Positions 4,839-25,323 of a stretch of 64,000 nt of DNA are shown piece by piece. Position 1 is the first letter of the stretch. Each line of letters opens with the position of its first letter. The notes beneath the pieces are model-generated. The model worked only from the letters and a program-made list of their open reading frames with translations. It was not told the origin of the DNA and did no database searches. This DNA is from an uncultured Flavobacteriaceae bacterium. Its GTDB lineage: Bacteria; Bacteroidota; Bacteroidia; Flavobacteriales; Flavobacteriaceae. The position numbers and the translations under genes were made by a program. The DNA lies in contig CAWIGH010000005.1 of assembly GCA_963835675.1 (NCBI GenBank), positions 271,874 through 335,873 on the forward strand, read 5' to 3'.

Positions 4839-4923
4839 GAATGAACTTGTATAAGATGAGAACCAGTTTAACCGGCTCACGACTACCAATTCAACAATTA
4901 TTAGAGAAGGCGTATGAAGTATA

Positions 4924-4974
4924 CCCGCCTGCCACTATAAATATTTATTGAGGCGGGCAGGGGCGTTGTTGTGC
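4924..4974 (-). repeat. Terminal attC-like half-site S0 containing a 38-bp nested REP-like insert (4924-4961)
   Basis: Host TATA|GGCGTT-GTTGTGC; insert CCCG-CCTGCC-ACT-[ATAAATATTTATTGAGGCG]-GGCAGG, also present at 12582 and 18013. Confidence 0.7.
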
Positions 4975-5033
4975 TTTCGTGCTTTTCTCATCCTTTTCAT
5001 TTATGAAACGAACAGATGTTTATCAATATCTAA

Positions 5034-5441
5034 TTATTCTTTATCAAACCCATCAACAATGACTCCTCCCATAGATGCAGGAAAACCGAGTATTATTATT
5101 CTTTTCAAGGCAATTATGGGTTCGTCTAAAATTGGCATTCTGTTAAGTGCAAATAGAACAATAAAAACGATAATAAGGGCAATTCCATAATCAATAATGA
5201 TTCGTAAAACGAAATGGGATAATCTGTGCTTTATTTGTCCTTGAAATATTCCTTGAATAGAGTATAAACTTATAAATAATAACGATAAAAAAACTAGTAC
5301 TATTACATTAAGTAATGGTAACGTTTCGCTAAGTCTCCAAGATTCTTCTGAGAATGCTACAGGAACAGTCAATGCAGAGGACCCAACTATTACCTGAACA
5401 ATATCTTCTGTGTTGATAGATTTTTTGAAAGATTTAATCAT
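5034..5441 (-). CDS. DUF2391 / TIGR02587-like membrane protein (cassette C16)
   Basis: EDIVQVIVGSSALTVPVAFSEESW...FPASMGG; hydrophobic helices. Confidence 0.75.
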   Translation of the reverse strand: MIKSFKKSINTEDIVQVIVGSSALTVPVAFSEESWRLSETLPLLNVIVLVFLSLLFISLYSIQGIFQGQIKHRLSHFVLRIIIDYGIALIIVFIVLFALNRMPILDEPIIALKRIIILGFPASMGGVIVDGFDKE

Positions 5442-5539
5442 TTTTATTTATACAATTTACGCAACTGTTTGTATTAAACATTTAATATTTCTTGCATGAA
5501 GCCCAATGGTTTGTAAGTGGTTAGTTTCGGAAAATCCGA

Positions 5540-5560
5540 CTTGCCACGCCAAAGGCGTGG
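5540..5560 (+). repeat. 21-nt REP-like unit (leader + hairpin)
   Basis: CTTG-CCACGCC-AAA-GGCGTGG in the loop of the AAAATCC/GGATTTT sub-hairpin. Confidence 0.75.
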
Positions 5561-5659
5561 TGGATTTTCCGACGTAGGGGCAAGTTAATTAATTCATGTG
5601 ACACGAGCAACGCGAACTGGCGCAAGCAATTTCCTGCGCGTAAATTAAGTAGCAATTAA

Positions 5660-5698
5660 CCTGCCTGCCGGTTTACCCGCCTCTGGAGGGCAGGCAGG
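5660..5698 (+). repeat. 39-bp nested REP-like composite, identical to 8877-8915
   Basis: CCTGCCTGCCGG-[TTTA-CCCGCC-TCT-GGAGGG]-CAGGCAGG inserted at AA|TTATA. Confidence 0.85.
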
Positions 5699-5765
5699 TT
5701 ATACACGTTGTCGGCAGTAGTACTTATAATTATTTAAATTTATACAACCAAGCAATAGCATTTTG

Positions 5766-7838
5766 TTACTTTAATTTCATCAATAAGTATGAAAATGTCA
5801 TAGCACTAGATTTTGCACTTTGTTCATTTGTCGATGAGCCTCCATGACCGCCTTCAATGTTTTCATAGTAATAGATAGGATGTCCCATATCAATCATTTT
5901 AGCTGCCATTTTTCTTGCATGGCCGGGATGAACGCGGTCATCACGAGTAGACGTATAAAAGTAGACTTCTGGATAATCCACATCTTTTTTTAGATTGTGA
6001 TATGGAGAGTATTTTTTAATATATTCCCATTCTTCTGGGATATCTGGATTTCCATATTCTCCCATCCAACTGGCTCCTGCAAGTAATTTATTATAGCGTT
6101 GCATATCTAACAACGGAACTTGACAAACCACTGCATTATATAGGTCAGGTCTTTGTGTAAAGGCAACGCCAACTAATAAGCCACCGTTACTGCCTCCCAT
6201 AATACCTAAATGTTTTGGTGATGTTATCTTTTTCTCAATTAAATCTTCAGCTACGGAATGGAAATCATCGAAAACATTTTGTCGCTTTTCCTTTAATCCA
6301 GCCTGATGCCATTTTGGACCAAACTCACCACCACCACGAATATTGGCAAGAACAAATACACCACCATTATCTAACCATGACGTTCCGAAAGTAGCAGAAT
6401 AAAATGGTTCTTGCGAGATTTCAAATCCACCATAAGCGTAAAGTAAGGTCGCGTTATTTCCGTCGGCCTTCATGGTTTTAGATGATACCATAAAATAGGG
6501 TATGAGTGTTCCGTCTTTTGATTTTGACATGAACTGATTGACTTTATATTTGTCACCGTCAAAATACGTTGTAAGCGATTTAAAAGGTTTTAGTGTATTA
6601 GTGTCTGCATTTGCGATGTATAAGGTTGTTGGTGTAAGGAAGTTGTTATATGTGAAAAAATATTCATCTGATAAATCACTCAAATCCATAATAGAAATTG
6701 TTCCAAAATCGGGTGCATTTACTTTTTCACTTATCCATTTATTATTCTCATAAGAATAGATAAATAGTTCACTAATTACATTGTGAAGTAAGGTTATTAG
6801 GAGCTTGTTTTTTGTACTTGAAACCCCAGTTATACTTGATGATTCATCAGGTTGAATAATTAGTTGAATCTCTTTTTGTCCGTTTAGTAATTTAGTAAAA
6901 TTTAAACTTAGTAGTGAGCCTTGTTTATAGGTTTTATCATCTACGATCCAATCTGATTTTAATTGAATAATTAACTGGTTATTCAGCAGATTTTGAGGAG
7001 AGGCATCGCCAGGTATATCTAATTTTATTTGTTTATCGTCAACCAATATAAAATAAGAAATATCAGTCCTAGAAACGTAGCGAACAACGGTTTTATACTT
7101 TGTTGAACCGTCTCTAAATATAAATCCCGATGCTAGGATATCTTCCTTTTCGCCTTCATACAGAAGTGTCGCGTCTTTTAATAATGTTCCTCTTTCCCAT
7201 AGTTTAACTTGTCTTGGATATCCGGAAGTCGTCATGGTATTTTCACCAAAATCGGAAGATAAAATCAAGTTGTTTTTGTCCACATAACTTGCACTTCCCT
7301 TAGATTCTGGAACATAAAAACCATCGGCTATAAATGTCTTTGTATTTACATCAAATTCTTTTTTAATCGTGGCATCACCACCACCTTTTGAAAGGCTAAC
7401 AATAAATCGATCATAATCTGGATATAAACCAGTCGCACCTTTATAAACCCATTTTATATCATCAGTTTTAGACATTTCATCTAAATCTAAGAGTATTTCC
7501 CACGTTGGGTTTCCATTTATGTATTCTTTTTTTGGACTTCTTCTCCAAATACCTCTTACATGATCTTTATCTTTCCAGAAATTATAAACAAATTCACCGT
7601 AGGTTGAAGGGTAAGCAATGCGATCTTTAGAATTATATATTTCTAGAGATTTATCGTAAATGGCTTGATATTCAGCTATGCTACTTAATTTGTCTTGGGT
7701 TATTTTGTTTTGCTTCTTCACGAATTCTAATGATTTTTCGCCGTCGATGTCTTCTAACCATAGGTAAGGATCTTCTTGGGCTTGCATTGTAAATAGTGAA
7801 GTGAAAATTGCTAGAAAAAATAAAGTGTTCTTTGTCAT
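5766..7838 (-). CDS. Prolyl oligopeptidase family (S9A) serine peptidase, secreted (C15)
   Basis: Signal peptide, EDPYLWLED, GGSNGG nucleophile, DDRVHPGH, EGGHG. Confidence 0.93.
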   Translation of the reverse strand: MTKNTLFFLAIFTSLFTMQAQEDPYLWLEDIDGEKSLEFVKKQNKITQDKLSSIAEYQAIYDKSLEIYNSKDRIAYPSTYGEFVYNFWKDKDHVRGIWRRSPKKEYINGNPTWEILLDLDEMSKTDDIKWVYKGATGLYPDYDRFIVSLSKGGGDATIKKEFDVNTKTFIADGFYVPESKGSASYVDKNNLILSSDFGENTMTTSGYPRQVKLWERGTLLKDATLLYEGEKEDILASGFIFRDGSTKYKTVVRYVSRTDISYFILVDDKQIKLDIPGDASPQNLLNNQLIIQLKSDWIVDDKTYKQGSLLSLNFTKLLNGQKEIQLIIQPDESSSITGVSSTKNKLLITLLHNVISELFIYSYENNKWISEKVNAPDFGTISIMDLSDLSDEYFFTYNNFLTPTTLYIANADTNTLKPFKSLTTYFDGDKYKVNQFMSKSKDGTLIPYFMVSSKTMKADGNNATLLYAYGGFEISQEPFYSATFGTSWLDNGGVFVLANIRGGGEFGPKWHQAGLKEKRQNVFDDFHSVAEDLIEKKITSPKHLGIMGGSNGGLLVGVAFTQRPDLYNAVVCQVPLLDMQRYNKLLAGASWMGEYGNPDIPEEWEYIKKYSPYHNLKKDVDYPEVYFYTSTRDDRVHPGHARKMAAKMIDMGHPIYYYENIEGGHGGSSTNEQSAKSSAMTFSYLLMKLK

Positions 7839-7881
7839 TATTTATAATTTAGTGTTGTGTTTTTATTTTAAAGGGTATTAT

Positions 7882-7988
7882 TGCCAACGTTTGGGCTCGT
7901 ATGTTTTTCCGATGAGAAATCAAGCGGGTTAAATATACTAAACTTTGGTGTTTCACAAAACCACAATAGATTATAGCCATTGTTAGCT
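7882..7988 (-). repeat. attC-like site S2 (107 bp)
   Basis: TGCCAAC...GTATG ... TTATAgccatt-GTTAGCT; shares GAGAAATCAA.CGGGTTAAA with S3. Confidence 0.8.
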
Positions 7989-7992
7989 ATAG

Positions 7993-8736
7993 TTATTTTG
8001 AAATTAATTCATCCAATTTGGCTTTTAACTCAGGGACTGTATGTTTTATATTACGCGTTTCAGACACTTCTAACTTTATTCCATTTGAAATAAAATTTAT
8101 AATGCCATTTTTGTCTACTAATAAAATTTTTGGATAGCTCTCTGGCTTGAAAGTATTCTTTAATAGTTCCTCTTGATCTGTTATAATATCAAAATCAAAT
8201 GGTTTCCTTTTTAAGAAGTCAATTACCTTAGTTTTAGAATCGAATGTTATCGCAATGAAATTAGCATTCGAGTCATATTCAGCTTTTAGTTTATTTAGCT
8301 CTGGAATTTCCTTTAAACAAGGTGTGCAGTTGACAAACCATAAGTTGATAAATGTTACTTTTCCCTTAAGTATTTTATTATTTATTTTGATGTTAGTTAG
8401 TGTTATCAAATCTAAATCAGGCAATTCTTCGTTTTGTAAATTAAAAATTGCATCTCTCTTATAATCAACTTTTCTTAAATCCAAACTTAGTTTGACAAAA
8501 GTTATAGTTGAATCATTACGAGTGATTGTATTTCCTAATTCGTAACTAACACTCTTAGCGATAAATCCATATTTTTCAACGGAAGTCTTGTTGTAATTGT
8601 CTTTTGTTTTATTTAAAAACACTTGAATACTATCCTTGTCTGATAGTATTCTCTCAGTACCCTCGATTTGAAAATACTCTTGAGATATCAAAATTGATGT
8701 AAATAAGGCAAAACAAATGCATGCAATCTTTTTCAT
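7993..8736 (-). CDS. TlpA-family thiol-disulfide oxidoreductase (C14)
   Basis: LKGKVTFINLWFVNCTPCLKEIPELN (CxxC), YPKILLVDKNG. Confidence 0.88.
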   Translation of the reverse strand: MKKIACICFALFTSILISQEYFQIEGTERILSDKDSIQVFLNKTKDNYNKTSVEKYGFIAKSVSYELGNTITRNDSTITFVKLSLDLRKVDYKRDAIFNLQNEELPDLDLITLTNIKINNKILKGKVTFINLWFVNCTPCLKEIPELNKLKAEYDSNANFIAITFDSKTKVIDFLKRKPFDFDIITDQEELLKNTFKPESYPKILLVDKNGIINFISNGIKLEVSETRNIKHTVPELKAKLDELISK

Positions 8737-8783
8737 AATTATAGCTAACGTTAGAGCTATGGTTTCGTTGCGGGATCGTCCGT

Positions 8784-8804
8784 CCCGCCGTGCTTTGGCG
8801 TGGG
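8784..8804 (+). repeat. 21-nt REP-like unit
   Basis: CCCGCCGTGCTTTGGCGTGGG between GTCCGT and AGGAC. Confidence 0.7.
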
Positions 8805-8876
8805 AGGACTATTCCGCTGAGAAATCAAACGGGTTAAAGATATAAATATTTAAGATAGAGTAAAAGCCATGCTGAA

Positions 8877-8915
8877 CCTGCCTGCCGGTTTACCCGCCTC
8901 TGGAGGGCAGGCAGG
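8877..8915 (+). repeat. 39-bp nested REP-like composite
   Basis: Exact copy of 5660-5698, again at AA|TTATA. Confidence 0.85.
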
Positions 8916-8944
8916 TTATAGACATTGTTATAGCCAGTTATTTT

Positions 8945-9754
8945 TCATTTATTATTGTAATTTTTCCAAAATTCTTCACATCTTTCTTTTTCGGCTTGTT
9001 TTAAAATTGTAAAACCTAGTTCAATTGCTTTATAAAAATCATCACAGGCTTTCATTTTTTCTCCGACCTCATATAAAGCCAATCCACGAAGAAAGTAAGC
9101 ATTTTTATTATTTGGGTCTAACGATATTGCTTTATTACAATCAAATACTACTCCGTTCAAGTCATTTGGAAATCTAGTTCCAGCCCTGTTTACATAAACT
9201 CTTGCGTTTAAAGTGTCTTTTAATAAATATTTATCAAAATCATCTTTTGCCAGTTTGGTCATACCTGTTGCTAAATATATCCTTGCTCTATTTAAATATG
9301 ATTCAGGTTCTGGCGATTTTGATATTTCATCATCAAGAGTCTTTAAAAGATTATCGAAATCAGGTCTTGTCCAAAATCCCATAGTAGTTTTTATCCTTCC
9401 ACTACAATCGTCATCGATTAAGTCAAAAGAGACATAGTAATCTGTTAGATAAACCTTGTACTGCCCATAGCCTTTGCACATTTGCCCTTCTTTATCAATA
9501 AATTTGATTGTATCTCCTGACAATTCATATGTTGCAATAACATCTACGGTTTGGTCATTTCCAAAATCGCCTGCGATCAATCCGTTGTCTTTAAACTCAA
9601 AGCCGATTGGACCAGTTTGTCCGATCCTTACCCACTTACCAATTAGCGTATTTTCAGACTTTGTACTTGTCTTATTATTTTGCTTTTTACTAGAATTGCA
9701 GGCAAAAAAAATTCCACTTGAAAGGAGGATCAAAAAAAATAATTTTGTTTTCAT
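8945..9754 (-). CDS. TPR-containing lipoprotein (C13)
   Basis: Lipobox FFAC; TPR motifs (YLNRARIYL, AYFLRGLALY, ACDDFYKAIELG). Confidence 0.8.
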   Translation of the reverse strand: MKTKLFFLILLSSGIFFACNSSKKQNNKTSTKSENTLIGKWVRIGQTGPIGFEFKDNGLIAGDFGNDQTVDVIATYELSGDTIKFIDKEGQMCKGYGQYKVYLTDYYVSFDLIDDDCSGRIKTTMGFWTRPDFDNLLKTLDDEISKSPEPESYLNRARIYLATGMTKLAKDDFDKYLLKDTLNARVYVNRAGTRFPNDLNGVVFDCNKAISLDPNNKNAYFLRGLALYEVGEKMKACDDFYKAIELGFTILKQAEKERCEEFWKNYNNK

Positions 9755-9798
9755 CTTTATCTTTTTTTTTGTTTGACAATGCTGCTTTTTAAAATTGG

Positions 9799-9914
9799 AT
9801 ATAACATTGTTGTATAAGATTAGTTGCGTGTTTTAAGCGACTAATTTAGCAAATACAAACCGAATAGACACGAGCGTAGCGAACTGGCGTAAGCAATTAT
9901 AGCCAGTGTTAGCC
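9799..9914 (-). repeat. attC-like site S4 (116 bp)
   Basis: ATATAAC-attgttGTATAAG ... TTATAgccagt-GTTAGCC. Confidence 0.82.
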
Positions 9915-9972
9915 TATCGTTATTATGTTCAAGTTTAGTTAAAAATTCTAATTATATAGTTTATGAATGTAA

Positions 9973-10743
9973 TTACATTGTTAATGTGAGTCCGCCATCT
10001 ACAGTAAGCGTTGAGCCAGAAATATAACTGGATTCATCTGAACAAAGAAACACAATAGCATTTGCAATCTCTTCCGGGCGACCAATTCGTTGTAAATGTA
10101 CGGTAGGAAGCAGTCCTTTATCGTACAAGTCGTCACCAACAATACCTCTCAGGCGTTGGTGCATAGGTGTTTCAGTAATACCCGGACATAAAAGGTTTAC
10201 TCTAATGCCCTTAGGTCCTAATTCGGCAGAGACACTGGTCGTTAATCCAATAAGACCGTGTTTAGATGTTACATAGGCCGATCCGGTTGGAAAACCGAGA
10301 AATGAATTCACTGAGCCTATATTCACAATTGCACCACCCAAACCAAGTTTAAGCATGGCTCTGGCCTCATATTTCATGCAAAGAAATGTTCCCTTTAAGT
10401 TGATGTCAAGAACCTGATCCCAATCATCTTCAGCAAGGTCAGTTATTCCATTTAGTTTTCCTTCAATACCGGCATTATTTATTGCATAATCCAAACGGCC
10501 AAATACTTCGATAGTATGAGCGACCATTTGCTCTACGCTTTTAGCAATCGAAACATCGGTCTTGATTGCAGACGCCTTGCCACCCTTTGCTTCAATAGAA
10601 GCTACTAAGCTATCAAGTTTCTCTTTTCGACGTGCTGCGACTACTACACTTGCACCATTCGCTGCAAAAGCTTCGGCAGTAGCTCTTCCAATACCACTAC
10701 TTGCTCCAGTTATAAGTACGACTTTTTCTTTCATATTACTCAT
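9973..10743 (-). CDS. SDR-family NAD(P)-dependent oxidoreductase (C12)
   Basis: TGASSGIG, NNAG, YVTSK. Confidence 0.92.
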   Translation of the reverse strand: MSNMKEKVVLITGASSGIGRATAEAFAANGASVVVAARRKEKLDSLVASIEAKGGKASAIKTDVSIAKSVEQMVAHTIEVFGRLDYAINNAGIEGKLNGITDLAEDDWDQVLDINLKGTFLCMKYEARAMLKLGLGGAIVNIGSVNSFLGFPTGSAYVTSKHGLIGLTTSVSAELGPKGIRVNLLCPGITETPMHQRLRGIVGDDLYDKGLLPTVHLQRIGRPEEIANAIVFLCSDESSYISGSTLTVDGGLTLTM

Positions 10744-10814
10744 TTGATTTCTTTTTAATTGGTTAGTATAATTTAAAATATTTTATCGTTGGTTTTTTGG
10801 TTGGTCATAATGTT

Positions 10815-10865
10815 GGCTAACGTGTTTGTGTATGATTTCGTTGCGCCTGCCTGCCGCAGGCAGGC
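10815..10865 (-). repeat. Truncated attC-like site S5 (one arm only) ending in a 19-nt REP-like unit (10846-10864)
   Basis: GGCTAAC-gtgtttgtGTATG-atttcgttgcg-[CCTG-CCTGCC-GCA-GGCAGG]; no TTATA...GTT arm follows. Confidence 0.72.
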
Positions 10866-10870
10866 TTTCG

Positions 10871-11206
10871 TTATCTTTCACTACTTGAACTCTTTGCACT
10901 CAATTCGTTTTTCAAATCTAATTGAAGTTTTTTGTTTGCCATTAAAAGATCTTCAAGCGCTGTTATGGCCCATGATGTTTTAATGCCTAAATCAAACAAC
11001 ATTTGATCTAACTCCACATTACCGTACTGTTCTTTTAGTTTGGGGTAGGACAAAATATTTTTTTCTCTGAGTTTATAATAATTTAGTTGATAATTATTAA
11101 ATAATTCTCTTGCATCATTGATTCCATTTTTTGCTAAAAATGGTTTTAATCAATCTTCTTTGAAACCCCATAACGGTTCAGAAGCGTCACGTACAAAAAT
11201 TTCCAA
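10871..11206 (-). pseudogene. Gene remnant with an in-frame TGA (11150-11152) and no clear start
   Basis: Frame continues upstream of ORF 10871-11053: LEIFVRDASEPLWGFKED*LKPFLAKNGINDARELF... Confidence 0.55.
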
Positions 11207-11207
11207 T

Positions 11208-12344
11208 CTAAATTAACTGATATACCATTATCTTCTTTTCTTTCCCTTTAACACTTACCTCCCCCCAGGGTTTTGTTGAAATAATTGCTTTGGTTTTTTT
11301 ATAAATGGATTCACTTATTAGAATGGCATTGGAAAGATCTGAGGTCAATGCTTCTATCCTTTTTGCTGTGTTTACAACATTACCGGTAATTGCATAGGTA
11401 AGTCTATCATCAGAACCAAGGTTTCCGGCTATTATTGGACCATAATTTAATCCAATACCTATTGTAATTTTCTCCGGTAAAATATCCTTTAAGTCCTTAT
11501 TGATCTCTTCCAGCTTTTTTATCATTTCGATTGCACAATAAGCGGATGAAATTTCAGGATCTTTAATTGGTAAGGGAGCGCCAAAAGTAGCGAAAATTTC
11601 GTCACCCGTAAATTGATTTATGACTCCATTGTGCATTTTAATTACATCTGCCATCTTTGAATAATACGTATCAAGTATGCGTACTACCTCTATAGGATTC
11701 AATTTTTCCACAATCGGGGTAAATCCTCTAATATCACAAAAAAGTAGTGCCACATTCAACTTGACACCTTCCTTAATGTCTTTTTTGTTATCAGCAATAG
11801 CGTTTTTTACGATCGACTCTGGAACATATTTCACAAATAGATCTAACGTTTTTTTCTGTTTTTCTGTCAGAGAAAGAAGTTTGGTATTTGCTTGTTCGAT
11901 TTCTTTGATTCGTTTTAATTCCCTTTTTCTTGCCTTCTCCAGTCTGTTTTCGATCTTAACATTTTCAGTTATATCATTCTGAACAGCCAGCAACTGATCG
12001 AGTTCTCCATTGATATCAAATACTGGGGCAATAGACCACTCCATATAAAATTCAGTTCCATCCTTTTTGTAATTAATTGTCTTCCCTTTCCATGCTTCTC
12101 CGGTATCGAGGATTTCCCCTAAATTTCGAAAGATATTTAGGTTTGTTTTAGAGCCTTGCAGAATTCTTGGACTTTTACCGATTACTTCCTCTCTGCTCCA
12201 ACCCGTCATTTCTTCAAAAGCTTTATTGACATAAATAATATAGGGCCCGGGAGAATCAAGTTCTGTAGTAGTAATCAATATACTTTGAGTCATTGCCTCT
12301 AATAATTTGATGGTGTTATATGAATATGGTTCTGGATTGTGCAT
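11208..12344 (-). CDS. PAS-domain class III nucleotide cyclase (C11)
   Basis: PAS (YVNKAFEEMTGW, IGKSPRILQG, NYKKDG) + coiled coil + FCDIRGFT, FTGDEI, GNVVNTAKRIE. Confidence 0.88.
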   Translation of the reverse strand: MHNPEPYSYNTIKLLEAMTQSILITTTELDSPGPYIIYVNKAFEEMTGWSREEVIGKSPRILQGSKTNLNIFRNLGEILDTGEAWKGKTINYKKDGTEFYMEWSIAPVFDINGELDQLLAVQNDITENVKIENRLEKARKRELKRIKEIEQANTKLLSLTEKQKKTLDLFVKYVPESIVKNAIADNKKDIKEGVKLNVALLFCDIRGFTPIVEKLNPIEVVRILDTYYSKMADVIKMHNGVINQFTGDEIFATFGAPLPIKDPEISSAYCAIEMIKKLEEINKDLKDILPEKITIGIGLNYGPIIAGNLGSDDRLTYAITGNVVNTAKRIEALTSDLSNAILISESIYKKTKAIISTKPWGEVSVKGKEKKIMVYQLI

Positions 12345-12453
12345 TGACTGTCAACTTATAATTTTTTGAACAAATAATCCTTGTTTTATATATTGAAATA
12401 TTCCATGGGATACAACGTGTTTGTGTATGGTTTAGCTTCGCTCGTCTGTTTCG

Positions 12454-12472
12454 CCTGCCTGCCACTGGCAGG
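12454..12472 (+). repeat. 19-nt REP-like unit
   Basis: CCTG-CCTGCC-ACT-GGCAGG. Confidence 0.8.
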
Positions 12473-12553
12473 TGTTTAAGCAACTAATTTAGCAAACATT
12501 TCACAAATAGAAAATTCCAGCAGAATTTTCGAAAGTAGGCTAGAACCAAGTAA

Positions 12554-12572
12554 CTTGTCCGCCTCTGGCGGA
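12554..12572 (+). repeat. 19-nt REP-like unit
   Basis: CTTG-TCCGCC-TCT-GGCGGA at AA|TTAATTATA; homolog at 17985-18003. Confidence 0.8.
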
Positions 12573-12581
12573 TTAATTATA

Positions 12582-12619
12582 TCCGCCTGCCACTATAAAT
12601 ATTTATTGAGGCGCGCAGG
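12582..12619 (+). repeat. 38-bp nested REP-like composite
   Basis: TCCG-CCTGCC-ACT-[ATAAATATTTATTGAGGCG]-CGCAGG at TTATA|CAC. Confidence 0.8.
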
Positions 12620-12658
12620 CACGTTGTGTGCATTGGCTTTTCTATTGTCTTCTTTAAG

Positions 12659-13138: not shown

Positions 13139-13159
13139 TGTAATTTTCGGATTAGATTG

Positions 13160-13313: not shown

Positions 13314-13354
13314 ATAGTTTTATTTTTTAATAATATCACTTTCTCATAGAATTA

Positions 13355-14986: not shown

Positions 14987-15019
14987 TTGTATTTTAAATT
15001 AAATGTGTGGTTTAATTAT

Positions 15020-15145: not shown

Positions 15146-15195
15146 GCAGTTCATTCTCACTTTATTTCGTTTAGTATAAATTCAATTAACCTTGT

Positions 15196-16934: not shown

Positions 16935-16941
16935 AAATTAG

Positions 16942-17071
16942 CCACAACGGTACGTATATGCTACGTGCCGTCGTGATTGAATTTAGTACCGTTAAAATTA
17001 ATCTTTTTCGTGTATAATTAAACTATCATTTTATGAACCTAAATCAGCATGGAGCATATATATTGTTGTAG
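16942..17071 (-). repeat. attC-like site S9 (130 bp)
   Basis: CCACAAC-ggtacg-TATATGCT ... AGCATATA-tatt-GTTGTAG. Confidence 0.82.
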
Positions 17072-17083
17072 GGCGTATTTATC

Positions 17084-17521
17084 TTATTTAAATTCATAAA
17101 TAACTTTGTTTTTAACAATCTTCTTTACAAATAACCAAACGAATAAAGATATTACTCCACCGATTAAAGTCCCATAAATATCTTTCCAGTCAAATACTCC
17201 ACGAGGCAAATAGGGTTGCAAAATTTCATAAAGAATATATCCAATCACAACAAAACCAATTACACGAAATACTTTCTTTCTTGGTGAGTTCAATATTGCC
17301 AACATGAAAAATATTTGAACGATTATTCCTCCCGAATTTCCGATACTATCAGCAATTCCATAATCATCAATGTTGTTTGTATAAATATATGGTCTATAAA
17401 TGTTTCTCCCGATCTCGGTCAAAAAGAAAAATAAAACTGCAATCAAGAAATAAATAATCCTTTTACTATCAATCGTTTTTATTGATGCTTTATCTGTAAA
17501 AAAGTTATTATTATTTTCCAT
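17084..17521 (-). CDS. Membrane protein with a weakly VanZ-like C-terminus (C7, gene 2)
   Basis: Four TM segments; YEILQPYLPRGVFDWKDIYG. Confidence 0.65.
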   Translation of the reverse strand: MENNNNFFTDKASIKTIDSKRIIYFLIAVLFFFLTEIGRNIYRPYIYTNNIDDYGIADSIGNSGGIIVQIFFMLAILNSPRKKVFRVIGFVVIGYILYEILQPYLPRGVFDWKDIYGTLIGGVISLFVWLFVKKIVKNKVIYEFK

Positions 17522-17563
17522 TTTTTGACTTCTAATAAACTCTTTTTAAGAATTATGAATCTC

Positions 17564-17746
17564 TTATTTTTGCTTTTCAACAACAAGGATATAATCAATT
17601 TTCGCTGTTGCCCCCATTAGTTGAAAAGTTGGACGAACATTAGGGATTATTGAAACAACTTCTCCACCAAGTTTATTTAAATATTGCTCTAATTTTTCTT
17701 GCATGTTTTCATTTTTGACCTCAATTCTATGTACTTTGTATTTCAA
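17564..17746 (-). CDS. 60-aa hypothetical protein (C7, gene 1)
   Basis: ATG start ~40 bp after the S10 core; protein-like composition. Confidence 0.65.
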   Translation of the reverse strand: MKYKVHRIEVKNENMQEKLEQYLNKLGGEVVSIIPNVRPTFQLMGATAKIDYILVVEKQK

Positions 17747-17782: not shown

Positions 17783-18063
17783 ATACAACGTGTTTGTATA
17801 TGGTTTAGCTTCGCTGATTATTCTCTCAAGCTTGTTTTAGTTTAGCATCATTTTGTTGCAAAATGCTGAACAAAAATCAGCTTGTTTCAATAGTTTTTTT
17901 GTGGTTAAGCAACTAATTTAGTAAACAAAAACGTGCCAGAGAAAATTCCGAAGGAATTTTCCGAATAAGCACTTGCCAAAGCAACCTGTCGGCCTTTGGC
18001 GGATTAATTATACCCGCCTGCCACTATAAATATTTATTGAAGCGGGCAGGCACGGTGTTGCCC
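17783..18063 (-). repeat. attC-like site S10 (281 bp) with ~90-bp palindromic insert (17815-17904), 19-mer (17985-18003) and 38-mer (18013-18050)
   Basis: ATACAAC-gtgtttGTATATG ... TTATA[insert]cacggt-GTTGCCC. Confidence 0.8.
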
Positions 18064-18126: not shown

Positions 18127-18486
18127 ATGAGAAATCACATTTTATTTGCTCTTTTTATAATTATGTTTTCAGGTGTTATTTATTCTCAAAGTTCTAATTC
18201 AAGTATAAAAATTGGAGATGTTTTTGTTATAGGTGAAGTTTACAATAATAATTATAAACATATTAATTTCCCAAGAGCTAACTTCATTATAAAAAAAGGA
18301 GGAATTGCCAATTACAATAATGTTAAAGATAAAAAGGTCGAAGTTACGTCAATTAAAGAGAAGAAAGATGGTAGATTAATTGCTACTATTAAATTGGCTT
18401 CTAATAAATTCTTTTTTAACAGCCACAAATATGTAACTGTTGAAATTAGTGAAGCAATTAGTCAAAAAGAATTATTAAGAATTTGA
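18127..18486 (+). CDS. Secreted hypothetical protein, inverted relative to the array (inside C6)
   Basis: Signal peptide; HINFPRANFIIKKGGIANY; stop lies 2 bp from the convergent gene's stop. Confidence 0.8.
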   Translation: MRNHILFALFIIMFSGVIYSQSSNSSIKIGDVFVIGEVYNNNYKHINFPRANFIIKKGGIANYNNVKDKKVEVTSIKEKKDGRLIATIKLASNKFFFNSHKYVTVEISEAISQKELLRI

Positions 18487-18488: not shown

Positions 18489-19538
18489 TTATTTATTAAG
18501 TTTAATAAATTCATATGTTTTCTCACTTAAGTTTAGAATGACGTGATAACTTCCTGATTTAACCTTAATATTGTCGCCATAGAAATAGGTGTTACCAAAA
18601 GGAAATTCATCTCCTCCCCAATTAAAATTCCAATTTTCACCTTCTCTGAATTTAAGCGAACCGTCGGATAAAATGATATCTCCCTCCCAGATTGCCTTTG
18701 ATTCATTAGTTAATGTAAGAGGAAAGTTTTTGGTCCAGTTATTATGTTGAGTTGCATCTCCTACAAGCCCAATATTTGAATAAAGTAATTTAACCTTTGG
18801 ATAATAGTCTTGAATCAAGCGTTTATTAGTATTTGTTAAGTTGATGATATTATCTATGAAAATCAAACTCGTAAATTTTATACTTCTTGATGATTTTAGA
18901 GCGTTTTGAAACGTAGAACTCTCAAGTAGTTTGAGGGTACGTTTGATATCGCTATCATCAAAAAAGGTAGAATCCATATTTTGATAATCATTTAATGCAG
19001 AATAACCAAAAGTAATGCTTGGATAGGGTAAATTCAATTCATCTAAAAATGATGTGATATCTTTCCTACTGCCATTATAACCTTCCTTAATCGCTTTACC
19101 GTATGAAGAAAGGCTCTTGTTTAAATTACTCTGCTTTTGATTTTTAGGGTTGAATTTAAGGTAACCCAAAAGATATGAAATTTCAGAGTTTAAATCAGAA
19201 GGTTCTAAATCCAAGTAAAACAATAAATGCGGTAGCAATTTATTATTTATGCCTTCAGGATTCTGAACTATGTTATCTATAATTTCTATCTGTTTTGATA
19301 CTTGACGTCTAATTAGAGTAAGATTTTCTGAATCTTGGTCTATGACAGTATACATTTGTTGTAAAACAGCCTTAAATTCATCATTGGTTTTCCTTGATTC
19401 GTTCCAGTTGTTTAATTGTAGGGCAATCAAAATTCCGATTACTACAAGAAAAATTTCGCCTAAAGCATATTTAAAATACTTTCCAGTTTTGTTTTCCATG
19501 AGCAAGTTTTGGCGAATTTTTCTAAAGAATTTTATCAT
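18489..19538 (-). CDS. DUF6090-type membrane-anchored protein with C-terminal SusE/SusF-like beta domain (C6)
   Basis: MIKFFRKIRQ...KYALGEIFLVVIGILIALQLNNWN; C-terminal LKFREGENWNFNWG...SGSYHVILN. Confidence 0.75.
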   Translation of the reverse strand: MIKFFRKIRQNLLMENKTGKYFKYALGEIFLVVIGILIALQLNNWNESRKTNDEFKAVLQQMYTVIDQDSENLTLIRRQVSKQIEIIDNIVQNPEGINNKLLPHLLFYLDLEPSDLNSEISYLLGYLKFNPKNQKQSNLNKSLSSYGKAIKEGYNGSRKDITSFLDELNLPYPSITFGYSALNDYQNMDSTFFDDSDIKRTLKLLESSTFQNALKSSRSIKFTSLIFIDNIINLTNTNKRLIQDYYPKVKLLYSNIGLVGDATQHNNWTKNFPLTLTNESKAIWEGDIILSDGSLKFREGENWNFNWGGDEFPFGNTYFYGDNIKVKSGSYHVILNLSEKTYEFIKLNK

Positions 19539-19562: not shown

Positions 19563-19757
19563 GCACAACGGTTTAGCTATGAACAGTACGGGAGCAAACT
19601 AGCGTTTGCTTTCCGCCACGCACATAGCGAAATCTTTTTGTTTTGTTTTTTCTTTTTTTGTTTAAAGCAAAATCCCAAAGATTTTGCGGACTTCATAAAA
19701 ATACGCAAACCCTACGAATAAGCCCGAAACCCGTATTGTTTATAGGTTGTGTTATAT
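19563..19757 (-). repeat. attC-like site S11 (195 bp)
   Basis: GCACAAC...TATGAACAGTACGGG ... CCCGTATTGTTTATA-ggttgt-GTTATAT. Confidence 0.85.
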
Positions 19758-19769: not shown

Positions 19770-20387
19770 TTATTTCAAAAACGGTATTGCAGGTAAATAC
19801 CAACTTTGTTTTCCCTTTTTTATCCTTATATAATTTTTAAATATTAATATAAGATTATATAAATAAAGAATTCCTGTAAGAACAACATAGATTATTTCTT
19901 TATCCATTCTAAAATTGATTAAGGATAATACTATATCAAAAAGGTTAAAATCAAATTTAATATATGAACCTTTTGTTGCTACCATAAAAATGGAATATAT
20001 CAACAAAGTCCAAGTAATCTGAAAACTGATTATTTTTTTTCCATAATTGTCTACAAATTTTATTTTGTCTTTTTTCAAAATCCACATTACTAATGGGATT
20101 ATTATTCCTAATAATGGATTAAATAATAGACCTGTTAAGGCACTTAAGTTCAAAAGAGTCAGATATCCTTTATCTTCAATATCTGTCCATTCTAAAAGGT
20201 CGTCTGGAGTTACTCCAAGAGCTTGTGTTAATTTTATCAACGTATCGCCTCTCGGGATTGATTCGCCTTTTTCAATTCGTTGAACTGTTCTTAGGCTTAA
20301 TTTTGATTCTTCCGATAATTGCTCTTGAGAAAATCCTTTTCGGCTTCGTAAGTCTTTAATTTTAATTGCTAAGTTTTGATTATTCAT
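19770..20387 (-). CDS. XRE-family HTH regulator fused to a DUF4870-like membrane domain (C5)
   Basis: IKDLRSRKGFSQEQLSEESKLSLRTVQRIEKG; LGIIIPLVMW...GKKIISFQITW. Confidence 0.85.
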   Translation of the reverse strand: MNNQNLAIKIKDLRSRKGFSQEQLSEESKLSLRTVQRIEKGESIPRGDTLIKLTQALGVTPDDLLEWTDIEDKGYLTLLNLSALTGLLFNPLLGIIIPLVMWILKKDKIKFVDNYGKKIISFQITWTLLIYSIFMVATKGSYIKFDFNLFDIVLSLINFRMDKEIIYVVLTGILYLYNLILIFKNYIRIKKGKQSWYLPAIPFLK

Positions 20388-20497: not shown

Positions 20498-20630
20498 AAA
20501 TAACGGTCTCGTATAACCGTCAGTTACGGGATTAAAGTTAATAATTTTCGTTTTGGCACTGACCTTAGTAATTCCGAGTGGATTCGGACGTAGTCGAATC
20601 CGCCGTAATTGCGGTTATACATTGTTGGCA
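20498..20630 (-). repeat. attC-like site S12 (133 bp)
   Basis: AAATAAC-ggtctc-GTATAACCG ... CGGTTATAC-att-GTTGGCA. Confidence 0.87.
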
Positions 20631-20670: not shown

Positions 20671-21339
20671 TTAATCATTATTTGGTCTTTCAGGAATGTA
20701 AACAAGATCAATTTCGATATCATTTCCATATTTAACAATCATAGAACATAGGACAGAGACACTTTTTCCATTGTTAATAGCGGGCTTCATTATCGGCATT
20801 TTTCTAAGCACTCTCAAAATTTCAGCTTGAATGGTTACTTCCGCATCTCTGACTTTCATGCCGGTTAAATTTCCGTTTTCAGTGATTATAAAAAAGGCTT
20901 CAACCTTTTTTGGTTCTGAAAGATTTAATTCTTTCAATAAACTCAAGTTAAATTCACGCTTTACAAATGCCGCTACTTTTTCATTGAAACATTCTCTTGT
21001 TTGTTCTATTGAGAGTTCCTCACAACCATTATATACTGGGGCAATTTCTACATCTTTTAATATCATACTATTGTCAGTAGTATAATTAGCTAAACCGTCA
21101 TCGTGAGATACAATGCTACATAAACTTAATAAAGCCTGTTCCTCTATTTCTGTCATATTTCCTTGTGCCATCACTTGTTCCTGAACAGCATTTATTTTCG
21201 TTATTAAATCACTTTCTGTGTTTTTTACCGAGTTGGATTCTTCCTTACAAGAAAAGCATAATAGAACAATAAAAATGGTTGAAACGACCATTAAATTTTG
21301 TGATTTAAATTTTGTTTTACGATTAAATTTGTATTTCAT
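20671..21339 (-). CDS. Lipoprotein with a TonB C-terminal-like domain (C4)
   Basis: Lipobox CFSC; APVYNGCE, FIITENGNL, LRVLRKMPIMKPAINNGKSV. Confidence 0.7.
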   Translation of the reverse strand: MKYKFNRKTKFKSQNLMVVSTIFIVLLCFSCKEESNSVKNTESDLITKINAVQEQVMAQGNMTEIEEQALLSLCSIVSHDDGLANYTTDNSMILKDVEIAPVYNGCEELSIEQTRECFNEKVAAFVKREFNLSLLKELNLSEPKKVEAFFIITENGNLTGMKVRDAEVTIQAEILRVLRKMPIMKPAINNGKSVSVLCSMIVKYGNDIEIDLVYIPERPNND

Positions 21340-21362: not shown

Positions 21363-21493
21363 TGACAACGGTTTTGTGTATGAGCAGTAGCAGATTTAAG
21401 CAACTACTTTTCGGGATACAAGATAATTTAATTTAATGAAATAGCGGTTCAGGTTGACACCCAAACCGCTATTGCTTATACACGTTGTTTTGC
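21363..21493 (-). repeat. attC-like site S13 (131 bp)
   Basis: TGACAAC-8nt-GTATGAGCAGTAGC ... GCTATTGCTTATAC-5nt-GTTTTGC. Confidence 0.87.
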
Positions 21494-21532: not shown

Positions 21533-22300
21533 TTAATCTTTATTAAAAGTTACTTTACCTGTTTCCATATCATAAAGAGCAGATATAATCATAATTTCTC
21601 CATTATCTTCCATCTTTGCCATTGTTGGTGATTGCTCTCTTATATTTTTTACAGTACGCATCGCATTGTTGTTGATAACAAGGTCTGTAAATTCAGCATT
21701 TTTGGTAGAGCGCTCACCATCGAATTCAGTTTCATTTACAGCTGGTTGTATTTCATCGATTAGGTCTGCAAGAGAGTTCATACCTAATGCTTTAGCATCA
21801 ACTTCATCAATAGTAGATTTGACTGCACCACAGGCCGTATGTCCCATTACAATGACTACTTTAGAACCAGCTACAGCAGTAGCAAATTCCATTGAGCCAA
21901 CGATATCAGCATTTTCAATATTACCTGCGACACGTGCTACGAAAATATCACCTATGCCTAAATCAAATACATCTTCTACAGGTACACGACTATCTACGCA
22001 CGAAAGAACAATAGCTTTAGGGTATTGGCCTATCATCGCTTTTCTACGTTGTGCTGAATGGTCGCGTTGGGTTAGATTATTATTTATAAAATTCTCATTA
22101 CCCTTTTTTAAACGCCCAATGATTTCTTGAGGTGTCATTTCAGCTTGTTCTTCAGCTGTTAATATACTCTCAACAACCTTTTCTTCAACAAGTTCTGTTT
22201 GTGAATTTTGTGCTGTTGGTTCTTGTTTTTTTGTTTCCTGACAAGATGTTAAAAATAATAGTGTCAAGAAAGTGGTCAATGGTAAAAATAGTTTTCTCAT
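21533..22300 (-). CDS. Beta-class carbonic anhydrase, lipoprotein (C3, gene 2)
   Basis: Lipobox LTSC; SCVDSRVP, RVAGN, GHTACGAV. Confidence 0.93.
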   Translation of the reverse strand: MRKLFLPLTTFLTLLFLTSCQETKKQEPTAQNSQTELVEEKVVESILTAEEQAEMTPQEIIGRLKKGNENFINNNLTQRDHSAQRRKAMIGQYPKAIVLSCVDSRVPVEDVFDLGIGDIFVARVAGNIENADIVGSMEFATAVAGSKVVIVMGHTACGAVKSTIDEVDAKALGMNSLADLIDEIQPAVNETEFDGERSTKNAEFTDLVINNNAMRTVKNIREQSPTMAKMEDNGEIMIISALYDMETGKVTFNKD

Positions 22301-22324
22301 ATGTTTATAGTTTAAAGTGAAAAT

Positions 22325-23023
22325 TTATAGTGTGTGGTGTAGGCTAAATTGTAATTGTCCTTTTTGCCAATTAGTGGTGGTCTGCTCCATCCATCCGAAT
22401 TGTAATCTCAAATTGTTCTTTAATGCATAACCAATACCTAAATAGGTTCTGTTTCGGTCAAAAAACTCAACATTACGCCCATTACCAATATTACGCTCTC
22501 CATTAATAAATAACTCATTATAAAATGCGAAATATGGCGTGCCTTTAGCTAAGGTTGTTCCTTTGAATGGAACATTTACGAAGAGGTTGTAACGATAGCG
22601 TGTTCTAAAATCTTGATTTTCCACCCATCTTTGTTCATAACGAAACCTATGTGTTAATAAAAGTCTTTTAAGAATTGTATTTGAGAACAAGGCTTCTTGA
22701 TATATACGATTTTCAGAAACAGGATTATCTATATCAGCACCGAACTGTCCTGTTGTAATATTGGCAAAACCAAGCGTGAATTTAACTCCTGAATCTGATG
22801 GTTTATATGTTAAACCAGACCGTAACAGTAACTGTTCCCTATCTCCGAGTCCTCGCCAATCACGGTATTGAAAATCTCCCTGAACTCCCCAATTAGATTC
22901 TTTGAAAGTTGTATTATAAAAATACATATACCAAGCCCCTAATTGATTGTTATCTGGTTCTTGGGCATTAACTTGTAATAAAGTTAGCAAACTGATAGTG
23001 AAAGGTAAAAGGATTCTTTTCAT
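22325..23023 (-). CDS. DUF2490-family outer-membrane beta-barrel (C3, gene 1)
   Basis: GAWYMYF, QLLLRSG, HRFRYEQRW, FDRNRTYLGIGY. Confidence 0.85.
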   Translation of the reverse strand: MKRILLPFTISLLTLLQVNAQEPDNNQLGAWYMYFYNTTFKESNWGVQGDFQYRDWRGLGDREQLLLRSGLTYKPSDSGVKFTLGFANITTGQFGADIDNPVSENRIYQEALFSNTILKRLLLTHRFRYEQRWVENQDFRTRYRYNLFVNVPFKGTTLAKGTPYFAFYNELFINGERNIGNGRNVEFFDRNRTYLGIGYALKNNLRLQFGWMEQTTTNWQKGQLQFSLHHTL

Positions 23024-23162: not shown

Positions 23163-23314
23163 GCACAACGTTTCTGTATATGATTTGTGCGGCTTAAAAT
23201 CCGTCCCGCCACGCCTTGGCGTGGGAGGATTTTCAGCTATTCAAATCAGATATTAAATATAATAGTTTTTAAATGATGTAGGAATGCAAGCATGAATTAT
23301 ATACGTTGTTGGCA
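23163..23314 (-). repeat. attC-like site S14 (152 bp) with a REP-like insert at 23205-23225
   Basis: GCACAAC-6nt-GTATATGATTTGTGC ... GCATGAATTATATAC-3nt-GTTGGCA. Confidence 0.87.
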
Positions 23315-23322
23315 GCAGTTAT

Positions 23323-24256
23323 TTATTTATCTGTTCCAAATTCAAGTTGTCGCTCGTATTCTTTATTCATCAAAATAGCCTTTTGATTCTTGGATTAATC
23401 CATCCTCATTTATAGTCCATTCCTCAAATCCGCTAATGTTTACTTTATTTCCAGTTCCATTGGTTCCGTTATTTGTTCCAGTCAAGTGTCCAATAGAATC
23501 GTGTTTTGTCCGATTTAGTAATTAGACTATCCATTGAAACAATCATATCCGGAAAAGCATCCATAAATCCTTTAGCAACATTTGTTATTGCTTCAGTACC
23601 TTTTGCTGGTTCCCCATCATTTATCTGTAGAACGCCATCTTCAGCGAAAAAGGAGGAGACAAAATTTGGTCTTTGACTGCACCACACTTGTGCGTAACTC
23701 TTGGCAAAAACCTCCAAATCAAATTTTTTCAACTCTTCTGGTAAGGGTGTATTTGTGAATGAGATGTTAATGAATTTCCATTCACCATCTTCCTTGATTA
23801 GGGTGAAATTGTCGATGTTATTTGTCCGTGGAACACCATATGAATGTAGGGTAGCATCAGCCCAAACAAAAGCGATTTGTCCTTTATTTATAAGGATTTT
23901 GTATTCATTCACAGGTTCATAAAAGGGCTTCCGTTCTCGGTTTTTTTGTGATTCAAAATATTCGCCAATTGTGATGACGGAATTTTTCGAGACTCCATCT
24001 CGAACTATTGCACTTCCCAAGTTTGCCTTGTCTGAAATTATGGAATCCAAAGTCTGAAAGTCAGAATTACCTACAGCAAACAAGAGCTTTTCTACAAGGG
24101 CTATTAATTCTTGTTCCTCCGCATTCCAAGTATTTTCTTTTTGTGCTTCAACAACCTTTTCAGTCTATTTAGTTTTATTTGATTGGACTGACAACTAAAA
24201 AATAAGCTAGAAACAACTACAAGAGATAATATTACAATACTCAATGTTTTTTTCAT
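23323..24256 (-). CDS. Tandem NTF2/SnoaL-like lipoprotein, broken by at least three indels (C2)
   Basis: MKKTLSIVILSLVVVSSLFFSC; core ORF 23469-24083; C-terminus ...TGTNNGTNGTGNKVNISGFEEW...EYERQLEFGTDK* recovered in shifted frames. Confidence 0.72.
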
Positions 24257-24275
24257 AATTGGATTTTTTAATTGC

Positions 24276-24409
24276 TGCCAACGGTTTTGTATAAGAATAA
24301 TTGCGTGTGCAAGCCACTAACTTACTAAAAATGGAACGAACCAGAGGAAAATCCGTAGGATTTTCCGAGAAGGTAAGAAGCAAGCAATTATTTTTACACG
24401 GTGTTGGCA
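24276..24409 (-). repeat. attC-like site S15 (134 bp)
   Basis: TGCCAAC-6nt-GTATAAGAATAATTGC ... GCAATTATTTTTACAC-3nt-GTTGGCA. Confidence 0.87.
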
Positions 24410-24417
24410 CAAGTATT

Positions 24418-25242
24418 TTATAATTCATATTTCCATTTTTGAGTTTCATTGTCGAAAGCTATACTAAATCCTCTCATAGAATTGACAGGTATGTTCGTTT
24501 CTTTGTGCCTTTTTATTTCCCATTTTGAAATTTTACTAACCAGTTCTATTGCATCTTTTTGAAATTCGGTCAGAGGTTTTTTAATTGAAACCTCAAATTT
24601 GATTGGAAGATTAAAATTAGAATCTATTTCGGTTTTATATCCTCTATTGGTTGTAACAGAGATTAATTTTCCATTTTTGTCAATAAGCAGTTTTAAAAAA
24701 GAATGAGGATTTTCATAGTTCTTTTTTTTACCAAGTTTTAAAATTGAATCTACATTTGTAATTGGGTTTGGATAATTAAAGTCGTTCTCTAAAAAATAAA
24801 TATAATTTTCAATTTTAAAAGAATTCCCATTGTCAAATACTCTTTGTTCTTTTTCTGATATATTTCTTTTATCAGTTGGTTTAGAATTTGAGCAAAAATA
24901 TCCAAAAGTCAGTTTGTTGTTTCTGCGTTTAGCATAGACAAGCCAATTTTCGCCAATTTCCACATTCCAATCACATGAAGTCCAAATTCCAGTATAATCT
25001 CCTTCAGAATTTAAAGTAAATTCCAATGTTGTAGGTTCGTTGCTTTTTTTATAATGTTTTAAAATATCAAAGGTAATTTTGTAAGTAAGAGAATCAGATG
25101 AATATACTTTAGAAACAGCTTTTCCTTCAAAGACATATTCAGCTGAAAAAAATTCAAGTGCAGGTTTTGGAACATCACAAACACAAGAAAATGCTCTTGT
25201 GAAAACTAGTGTTAAAATTAATGTAGCAATGATTTTTTTCAT
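24418..25242 (-). CDS. Secreted hypothetical protein with a Cys-containing NTR/TIMP-like N-terminus (C1, first cassette)
   Basis: Signal peptide then SCVCDVP...AEYVFEGKA...WTSCDW...YFCSNS. Confidence 0.72.
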   Translation of the reverse strand: MKKIIATLILTLVFTRAFSCVCDVPKPALEFFSAEYVFEGKAVSKVYSSDSLTYKITFDILKHYKKSNEPTTLEFTLNSEGDYTGIWTSCDWNVEIGENWLVYAKRRNNKLTFGYFCSNSKPTDKRNISEKEQRVFDNGNSFKIENYIYFLENDFNYPNPITNVDSILKLGKKKNYENPHSFLKLLIDKNGKLISVTTNRGYKTEIDSNFNLPIKFEVSIKKPLTEFQKDAIELVSKISKWEIKRHKETNIPVNSMRGFSIAFDNETQKWKYEL

Positions 25243-25247
25243 ATTTG

Positions 25248-25323
25248 TGCCAACTCGTTATATGTGGAACTAATATACACATTATCCCTATTTTTTTCCG
25301 GATAAGAGGAAATTTTGTTATCC
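25248..25323 (-). other. attI-like head site of the array
   Basis: Lone core (minus strand CATATAACGA-GTTGGCA) with no partner inverted arm upstream; TTATCC/GGATAA hexamers at 25282, 25300 and 25318. Confidence 0.6.

Follow-up and report, generated by a model that had tools for sequence, protein, structure and literature searches.

The 64,000-nucleotide stretch of DNA analyzed here (the window) covers positions 271,874 to 335,873 of contig CAWIGH010000005.1 in assembly GCA_963835675.1, the 3.3-Mb, 97% complete genome of an uncultured Flavobacteriaceae bacterium. Between two genes of phosphate uptake it holds a row of genes interspersed with hairpin-forming sites (window positions 4838–25285), which we read, with a probability of about 85%, as the decayed array, its recombinase gene deleted, of a gene-capture system that resembles an integron and is widespread across the Flavobacteriaceae. 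This reading is based on the anatomy of the sites, their linkage to one family of recombinases, the covariation and strand bias of their folds, the empty sites found in close relatives, and the boundaries at which the cassettes begin and end.

The array contains 16 hairpin sites bounded by AAC and GTT, together with one site at its head, and almost every minus-strand gene or gene pair leads into one such palindromic site. For most cassettes the stop codon lies 8–63 nucleotides from the AAC, and the start codon (ATG) of the following gene lies 9–75 nucleotides beyond the GTT. The open reading frame (ORF) list and Pfam assignments show that the genes enclosed by the flanking Pho genes are unrelated to one another in function, and the match of units, sites and spacings to an array layout is far beyond chance. 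A first-pass annotation, made from the sequence alone, had described consecutive minus-strand units of unrelated genes, sites with AAC and GTT bounds and an inner stem, and short distances between gene and site, and each of these descriptions holds.

All sites are given in plus-strand coordinates from AAC to GTT and are read on the minus (gene-sense) strand. On that strand the R'' half consists of nnnnnnAAC, a spacer of 3–4 nucleotides (AAYG), and a stem beginning (G)TATAA that runs into a variable middle; in the R' half the returning stem, ending TTATA(C), is followed by 5–7 nucleotides (AAACC) and GTTnnnnnn. Simple sites are 99–146 nucleotides long, while composite sites, which carry GC-rich hairpin inserts, reach 183–273 nucleotides. 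The site nearest the head, S16 (24280–24405), is a simple attC-like hairpin that scores 116 bits with our covariance model (R1). A telling feature is the pairing of flanks across each gene. The seven nucleotides after each GTT are complementary to the seven before the next AAC at a mean of 5.2 of 7 positions, with four junctions perfect, whereas the two flanks of one and the same site match at 2.3 of 7, near chance. At the head of the array, the S16 flank GGCACAA is the reverse complement of the flank of the attI-like docking site at all seven positions. Such pairing is the footprint expected if a gene and its flanks had once formed a circle. The same rule holds for integron cassettes, and we found it in every other genus examined.

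The sites also behave as conserved structures. More than 30 genomes contributed the 80 sites of our alignment. All 80 have the same AAC and GTT cores, and compensatory double changes occur at 10 of the 12 pairs of the inner stem; one pair, for example, is GC in 34 sites, AU in 32 and CG in 10. Paired cells amount to 96.9%, compared with 83% in shuffled alignments, none of which reached the observed value in 500 trials, and double-change cells number 137 against 27 in the shuffles. Controls in which the arms were slid against each other give 24–42% pairing. When individual sites are folded, the bottom strand, antisense to the genes, is the more stable in 95 of 101 cases (mean -2.4 kcal/mol, p=4e-17), and it is so in all 15 window sites folded, a bias consistent with a folded bottom strand as the recombination substrate, as in integrons. 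The sites share with attC the R'' and R' cores, the unpaired spacer, the L-type stem, the variable loop and a conserved structure, and differ in the lengths of the spacer. Flank complementarity, covariation and strand-biased folding, along with the recombinase linkage described below, bear out the first-pass proposal that the units follow the grammar of integron cassettes and that the sites are a Bacteroidota counterpart of attC.

The enzyme that goes with these sites lies elsewhere in the genome. A whole-genome scan with hidden Markov models of the site ends (end-HMMs) found a second cluster on another contig (C1), directly behind the gene with the best IntI-like match in the genome. This gene (C1:375665–376624) encodes an intact 319-residue recombinase, P0001, present in a single copy; 33 nucleotides beyond its stop codon comes ...TAATGTGTATATTAGTTCCACATATAACGA-GTT, behind which lie cassettes that point the same way as the gene. 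The head of the window array is a shortened version of this arrangement. Positions 25243–25350 are 92% identical to C1:376562–376669, the segment that takes in the last ~50 nucleotides of the gene and the downstream site, and the homology extends as far as GAGTTG, the point at which the two arrays' first cassettes begin to differ. Within this segment, 25286–25350 (minus strand) retains about the last 17 codons and the stop of the recombinase gene, the rest of which is deleted, and 25252–25285 (minus strand) is an attI-like docking site, TAATGTGTATATTAGTTCCACATATAACGA G|TT on the sense strand, identical to the sequence after the C1 recombinase stop. At its head, then, the window array has a docking site and the stub of a deleted recombinase gene, and the remnant indicates that the array was not integrase-less from the start.

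The consensus of the -7 promoter element in Bacteroidetes is TAnnTTTG. The docking site in the window holds a near-consensus version, TATATTAG, and many genera share the wider docking motif, TATATTTG-N4-5-(G/C)ATATAAC-NA-GTT, behind the recombinase stop. The fit of the TATATTTG box to the consensus suggests that it would act as a promoter for the cassettes, a role we infer from its sequence. The recombinase gene itself is co-oriented with the cassettes rather than divergent from them. Divergently upstream of the C1 copy lies a small gene for a 114-residue protein with a Cys-rich start.

The association of recombinase and sites extends far beyond this genome. Three congeners with recombinases 57–60% identical have the same sites downstream, among unrelated cassettes and in unrelated chromosomal contexts, and more than 573 tblastn-confirmed genome-contig stretches, obtained by scanning species genomes, come from Lutibacter, Polaribacter, Tenacibaculum, Psychroserpens, Algibacter, Lacinutrix and numerous other genera. 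Across the 58 loci for which 10 kb upstream was available, matches to the site ends number 236 downstream in the sense orientation and 4 upstream, with 0 in the opposite orientation. Sites are present at 29 of the 33 loci that have at least 1 kb of downstream sequence. A further 25 of the 58 loci end less than 1 kb after the recombinase gene, which suggests that cassette repeats break short-read assemblies and that arrays are under-represented in drafts. Two complete genomes have arrays of ~77 and ~80 kb behind the recombinase, with roughly 90–130 model matches. In a survey of 150 Flavobacteriaceae genera, one genome per genus, a single-copy ortholog of the recombinase was found in 38; genomes without it still have 13–23 sites, mostly clustered where listed. 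Homologs with 37–47% identity, N-terminal domain included, are present in ~20 other families of the class Bacteroidia, and at two of these loci a site lies just downstream.

Palindromic repeats between genes, some of them with nested GC-rich hairpin inserts, could also be miniature inverted-repeat transposable elements (MITEs), repetitive extragenic palindromes (REPs) or shared terminators that have nothing to do with cassette mobility. We consider this explanation scarcely tenable and reject it on four grounds: clustering, flank complementarity, covariation and recombinase linkage. Elements of this kind would be dispersed without regard to gene boundaries and bordered by target-site duplications, a pattern that the first-pass annotation had named as grounds for abandoning its proposal. 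The regular-expression scan for sites proved too permissive and was replaced by the end-HMMs and the covariance model, which was built mostly from sites of other genera. Over the whole 3.3-Mb genome this model returns 30 sites, with 11 of these matches corresponding to 11 of the 16 window sites. They sit in clusters next to genes and are not scattered: 28 of the 30 fall into six clusters, each of a single orientation, the exceptions being C4:345029 and C1:1086316 (the latter at a contig end). No target-site duplications border them, and the flanks are inverted complements across each gene instead of direct repeats. Invariant AAC and GTT cores, covarying stems and a position strictly downstream of one recombinase family likewise set these sites apart from MITEs and terminators.

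The recombinase at the head of these arrays is closest to the Xer enzymes. Against NCBIfam models the C1 protein scores 204 bits for XerA, 193 bits for IntI (TIGR02249, cut-off 265), 181 bits for XerC and 176 bits for XerD, and positions 180–238 of TIGR02249 are unmatched. Comparison with solved structures gives 146 bits for XerA and 118 bits, in two pieces, for the Vibrio integrase VchIntIA (2a3v). The catalytic set R-K-H-R-H-Y is conserved. An AlphaFold model (predicted local distance difference test score, pLDDT, 81) finds XerA as its best structural match (Foldseek E 4e-16), followed by IntI. The IntI-clade hallmark, an additional domain near patch III, is absent from the C1 recombinase. 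Orthologs in relatives are 391 residues long and have an N-terminal extension of ~95 residues, within which a beta/alpha domain of ~80 residues is predicted to fold with confidence; this domain has no Pfam match, and a Foldseek search with the full-length model returned tyrosine recombinases only, with nothing on the N-terminal domain. The C1 copy lacks ~72 N-terminal residues that all the 391-residue orthologs possess, and no remnant of the domain was found elsewhere in this genome. Lower-scoring tyrosine recombinases at two other loci of the same genome are putative Xer paralogues.

A classical integron remnant would also have AAC and GTT cores, flanks that obey the cassette rule and a bottom strand that folds better, all of which are integron hallmarks; by this account the sites would be true attC, the canonical IntI would be lost or encoded elsewhere, and the Xer-like gene would be a bystander. 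We regard this as very improbable. No protein of the 97% complete genome reaches the IntI cut-off, and the best, at 193 of 265 bits, is the array-linked Xer-like gene itself; in dozens of genera the arrays begin with this gene and a conserved docking site. Surveys of Bacteroidetes, moreover, report almost no integrons, just integrase-only elements (In0) and one Salinibacter integron, and reviews list Bacteroidota as integron hosts in a broad GTDB sense only. The failure to reach the IntI cut-off and the Xer-like gene at the array heads largely refute a canonical IntI integron, and the sequence comparisons indicate that the partner enzyme of these attC-like sites is not an integron integrase.

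Evidence on the mobility of the array comes from close relatives. In the closest of these (G016, PstC 98% identical) and in G022, pstS and the porin gene that borders the array on its other side are separated by ~120–320 bp and no array is present. The 20.7-kb array is accordingly a presence/absence polymorphism, and the fixed gene order across relatives that the first-pass annotation had said would speak against cassettes is not what they show, as they carry an empty site. At the left end, homology to the DNA upstream of pstS in relative G017 ends at window position 4839, within the junction GTGTTAA|C (4833–4840). This stop indicates that the R' end of the last site, S1, is joined to a chromosomal TT, as in an insertion at a secondary site. 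A 15-kb insert of G017 at the same pstS junction (L110, reverse complement 2281–17731) was considered as a sister array and discarded, as it contains no cassette sites; the junction upstream of pstS may be a general insertion hotspot. At the level of single cassettes, one cassette in another cluster of the genome has 88% nucleotide identity to one in Subsaximicrobium, and the homology begins exactly at GTT and ends at AAC. This boundary, the flank pairing (5.2 of 7 against 2.3 of 7) and the break between the two array heads at GTTG all place the cassette boundary at G|TT, as in integrons.

These observations can be assembled into a working model. An intact element consists of an Xer-like recombinase gene (391 residues), its stop codon, 20–45 nucleotides, a docking site ending ...ATATAAC-NA-G|TT, and co-oriented cassettes, each a unit of TTnnnnnn, a short leader, the gene, nnnnnnAAC, the hairpin body and a final G. 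Excision would release each cassette as a circle, with its two flanks pairing to close an R stem of 9–12 bp. The strand antisense to the genes would fold into the substrate, and the recombinase would exchange strands at G|TT with attI or with another site, much as IntI does. Cassette genes would be expressed from the putative attI promoter and by read-through.

Several points weigh against this picture. No recombination event was observed, and the circles, the exchange at G|TT and the chemistry of recombination are deduced from sequence. The recombinase has ~26 residues where VchIntIA has an IntI-specific insert of ~69, and in integrons it is this IntI-specific domain that reads the folded attC. 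The geometry departs from that of canonical attC: the unpaired spacer is 3–4 nucleotides on the R'' side and 5–7 on the R' side, and where an extra base occasionally occurs it lies on the other arm from the extrahelical bases of canonical attC, so strand choice could differ from that of integrons. For the 8 cassettes shared between genomes, neither neighboring site body is clearly co-inherited with the gene; the identities of their flanks are 58–66%, and local-alignment z-scores give no consistent answer, so the assignment of which site travels with a gene is based on the attI junction only. The presence/absence evidence concerns the whole array and not the gain or loss of single cassettes, and the model does not account for the arrival of a complete array, head included, at a position between pstS and the porin gene. 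Some of these points would fit a system with the same layout and another chemistry, in which the recombinase acts on double-stranded core sites (inverted R boxes), as Xer does at dif. The enzyme is closest to XerA, XerC and XerD and is without the insert that contacts extrahelical bases, the shared cassettes keep both R-box flanks while neither site body is clearly kept, and the spacer geometry is non-canonical. Strong covariation in stems 12+ bp inside the cores is something that a duplex core site would not require, however, and in 95 of 101 sites the two strands differ in favor of the same one when folded, so that we view this chemistry as unlikely, if worth serious attention. We therefore retain an array of cassettes with folded, attC-like sites as the preferred reading.

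The window array itself is probably frozen, because its own recombinase is lost, the sole C1 copy has no N-terminal domain, and the array shows an insertion sequence (IS), a truncated site and other decay. The cassette genes all lie on the minus strand between 4971 and 25251, and are given here with their sites from first to last in the sense direction, as identified from the ORF list and Pfam. The first cassette gene, hyp274 (24418–25242), precedes S16. It is followed by a SnoaL-like gene (23469–24083) and S15 (23167–23310), a single cassette with DUF2490 (22325–23023) and beta-carbonic anhydrase (21533–22300) genes and S14 (21367–21489), hyp222 (20671–21339) and S13 (20502–20626), HTH-DUF4870 (19770–20387) and S12 (19567–19753), and DUF6090 (18489–19538) and S11 (17787–18059). 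Next are VanZ (17084–17521) and S10 (16946–17067), hyp140 (15196–15618) and S9 (15024–15141, with one degenerate arm), an M28 peptidase (13355–14986) and S8 (13164–13309), DUF4440 (12659–13138) and S7 (12414–12625), and a PAS-adenylate cyclase (11208–12344) ahead of the truncated S6 (10819–~10880). The row ends with SDR (9973–10743) and S5 (9803–9910), TPR (8945–9754) and S4 (8747–8929), redoxin (7993–8736) and S3 (7886–7984), an S9-family prolyl oligopeptidase (5766–7838) and S2 (5505–5709, an AAT variant), and DUF2391 (5034–5441) and S1 (4838–4970), whose R' GTT joins the native DNA upstream of pstS. The right half of S1 is 85–91% identical to S7, S11 and one C1 site.

The row of cassettes is broken by an IS3 element and two decayed stretches. 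The IS3-family element (15754–16895, minus strand; orfA with HTH_Tnp_1 and orfB with rve by Pfam) sits between S9 and S10, has an 88% identical copy in a relative (G004), and is an intruder, not a cassette. In the decayed stretch at 10744–11207 (minus strand), which includes the truncated S6, there is no cassette-size ORF and no R'' arm for S6. The sole sizeable plus-strand ORF of the array (18127–18486, 119 residues, with a signal-peptide-like start) lies inside one cassette, between S11 and the DUF6090 gene. The two families of the DUF2490 cassette (21533–23023) also occur in a resident SulP-carbonic anhydrase-DUF2490 operon (27638–30884), ~7 kb away on the opposite strand.

The sites contain two further features. 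A GC-rich hairpin unit of 54 nucleotides (AACCTGCCTGCCGG...GGCAGGCAGGTT) is nested in S2 (5658–5711) and S4 (8875–8928) and recurs at C1:393136–393187; the copies are 96% identical, and similar GC-rich units are found in S1, S7, S11, S8 and S15. BLAST matches to these units fall inside cassette sites only, a pattern that would fit a small element with the sites as its target. Additionally, the nominally variable middle of many sites is conserved across genera (alignment A4) as an inner hairpin, GAAAATCC-TCGC-GGATTTTC, plus a TTTGCTAAATTAG motif, conservation that may point to a further role, for instance in binding a protein or as a small RNA.

On either side of the array the native chromosome is a Pho region. 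The left flank is a phosphate-uptake operon, with pstS (3888–4734, minus strand, Pfam PBP_like_2, read in two frames) followed by pstCAB and phoU. The right flank begins with a fragmented gene for a phosphate-selective porin O/P (25527–26448, minus strand; weak Pfam Porin_O_P match) that has 85% nucleotide identity to the G016 gene, which in that genome is ~120 bp from pstS. Three of these genes, phoU (488–1157), pstS and the porin gene, each consist of two adjacent ORFs or fragments, and are either pseudogenes or the product of frameshift errors in the assembly.

Integrons have been held to be nearly absent from Bacteroidota and are defined by the IntI domain, and here the same grammar is found with a simpler, Xer-like enzyme. 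The arrays, which can reach super-integron size, are tied to this enzyme in about a quarter of Flavobacteriaceae genera, which reveals a sizeable reservoir of mobile accessory genes, so far unannotated, among marine bacteria and accounts for the frequent contig breaks behind the recombinase gene. The system may also offer a second, independent pair of recombinase and site for cassette-based genetic tools. A search of the literature on integrons and on Flavobacteriaceae genera returned no description of these arrays, which as far as we found have not been reported from this family.

Integrons share a good deal with these arrays: a recombinase, a docking site and a one-directional array; sites with AAC...GTT cores in which an unpaired spacer is followed by an L-type stem and a loop of variable make-up; an R' flank that belongs to the next cassette; a bottom strand that folds better; and arrays of super-integron size. 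The orientation of the recombinase gene also has a counterpart in the 'inverted integrase' group of sedentary chromosomal integrons, in which intI and the cassettes share one direction (Cury et al. 2016, PMC4889954). The differences are in the enzyme, which is without the IntI additional domain, falls short of the IntI cut-off and bears a further domain at its N terminus, and in the sites, with spacers of 3–4 and 5–7 nucleotides, an R stem of 9–12 bp, a length of ~125 nucleotides and a sequence conserved across genera. The window array resembles a cluster of attC sites with no integron integrase (CALIN) in having no intact recombinase nearby and in its decay, seen in the IS, the truncated site and the dead stretches. 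It differs in keeping a recombinase-gene stub and a docking site, and CALIN are defined by matches to the IntegronFinder attC model. Xer enzymes (XerA, XerC/D) provide the best sequence and fold matches and share the catalytic set, but they resolve chromosome dimers at a single dif site, whereas this enzyme heads arrays of cassettes.

The closest parallel on record is rAID-1 (recombinase-associated acquired interbacterial defence) of gut Bacteroidales, in which a XerD-like tyrosine recombinase lies 5' of co-directional orphan immunity genes (Ross et al. 2019, preprint 10.1101/471110; PMC12247911). Its intergenic repeats were called 'reminiscent of integrons', it was said to be restricted to Bacteroidales (10.1101/471110), and its biogenesis was still open in 2025 (PMC12247911). 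Both systems combine a 5' XerD-like recombinase, co-directional short genes and repeated intergenic motifs in the same phylum, and the window's relatives have at least two co-directional downstream genes with repetitive intergenic motifs, as rAID-1 is defined. The first-pass suggestion of an under-described cassette system in the phylum is reasonable, though to speak of an unknown one would go too far, since rAID-1, which is probably related, had been described in Bacteroidales. The cargo differs, as rAID-1 arrays hold up to 31 orphan type VI secretion system (T6SS) immunity genes in Bacteroidales, while the flavobacterial cargo, by Pfam, comprises peptidases, redox enzymes, a cyclase, carbonic anhydrase and hypothetical proteins, in arrays that reach ~80 kb in relatives within Flavobacteriaceae. 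Folded-site anatomy, covariation and an attI junction are documented for the flavobacterial arrays. A rAID-1 recombinase is defined as more than 44% identical to BF9343_RS08045; a distant homolog (L118), taken as a route to the named Bacteroides enzymes, proved to be Cryomorphaceae-like and returned no Bacteroides names. The two systems are probably related, a likeness drawn from architecture. We lean slightly toward a broader proposal, in which Bacteroidota would have their own lineage of IntI-independent gene-capture machines, with an Xer-like recombinase bearing a novel N-terminal domain, folded single-stranded sites of ~125 nucleotides, exchange at G|TT, up to ~100 cassettes in marine Flavobacteriaceae, and rAID-1 as a specialized branch. 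If so, the IntI-specific domain would not be needed for cassette capture, and the biogenesis of the rAID arrays of gut Bacteroidales would gain a concrete mechanism that is directly testable.

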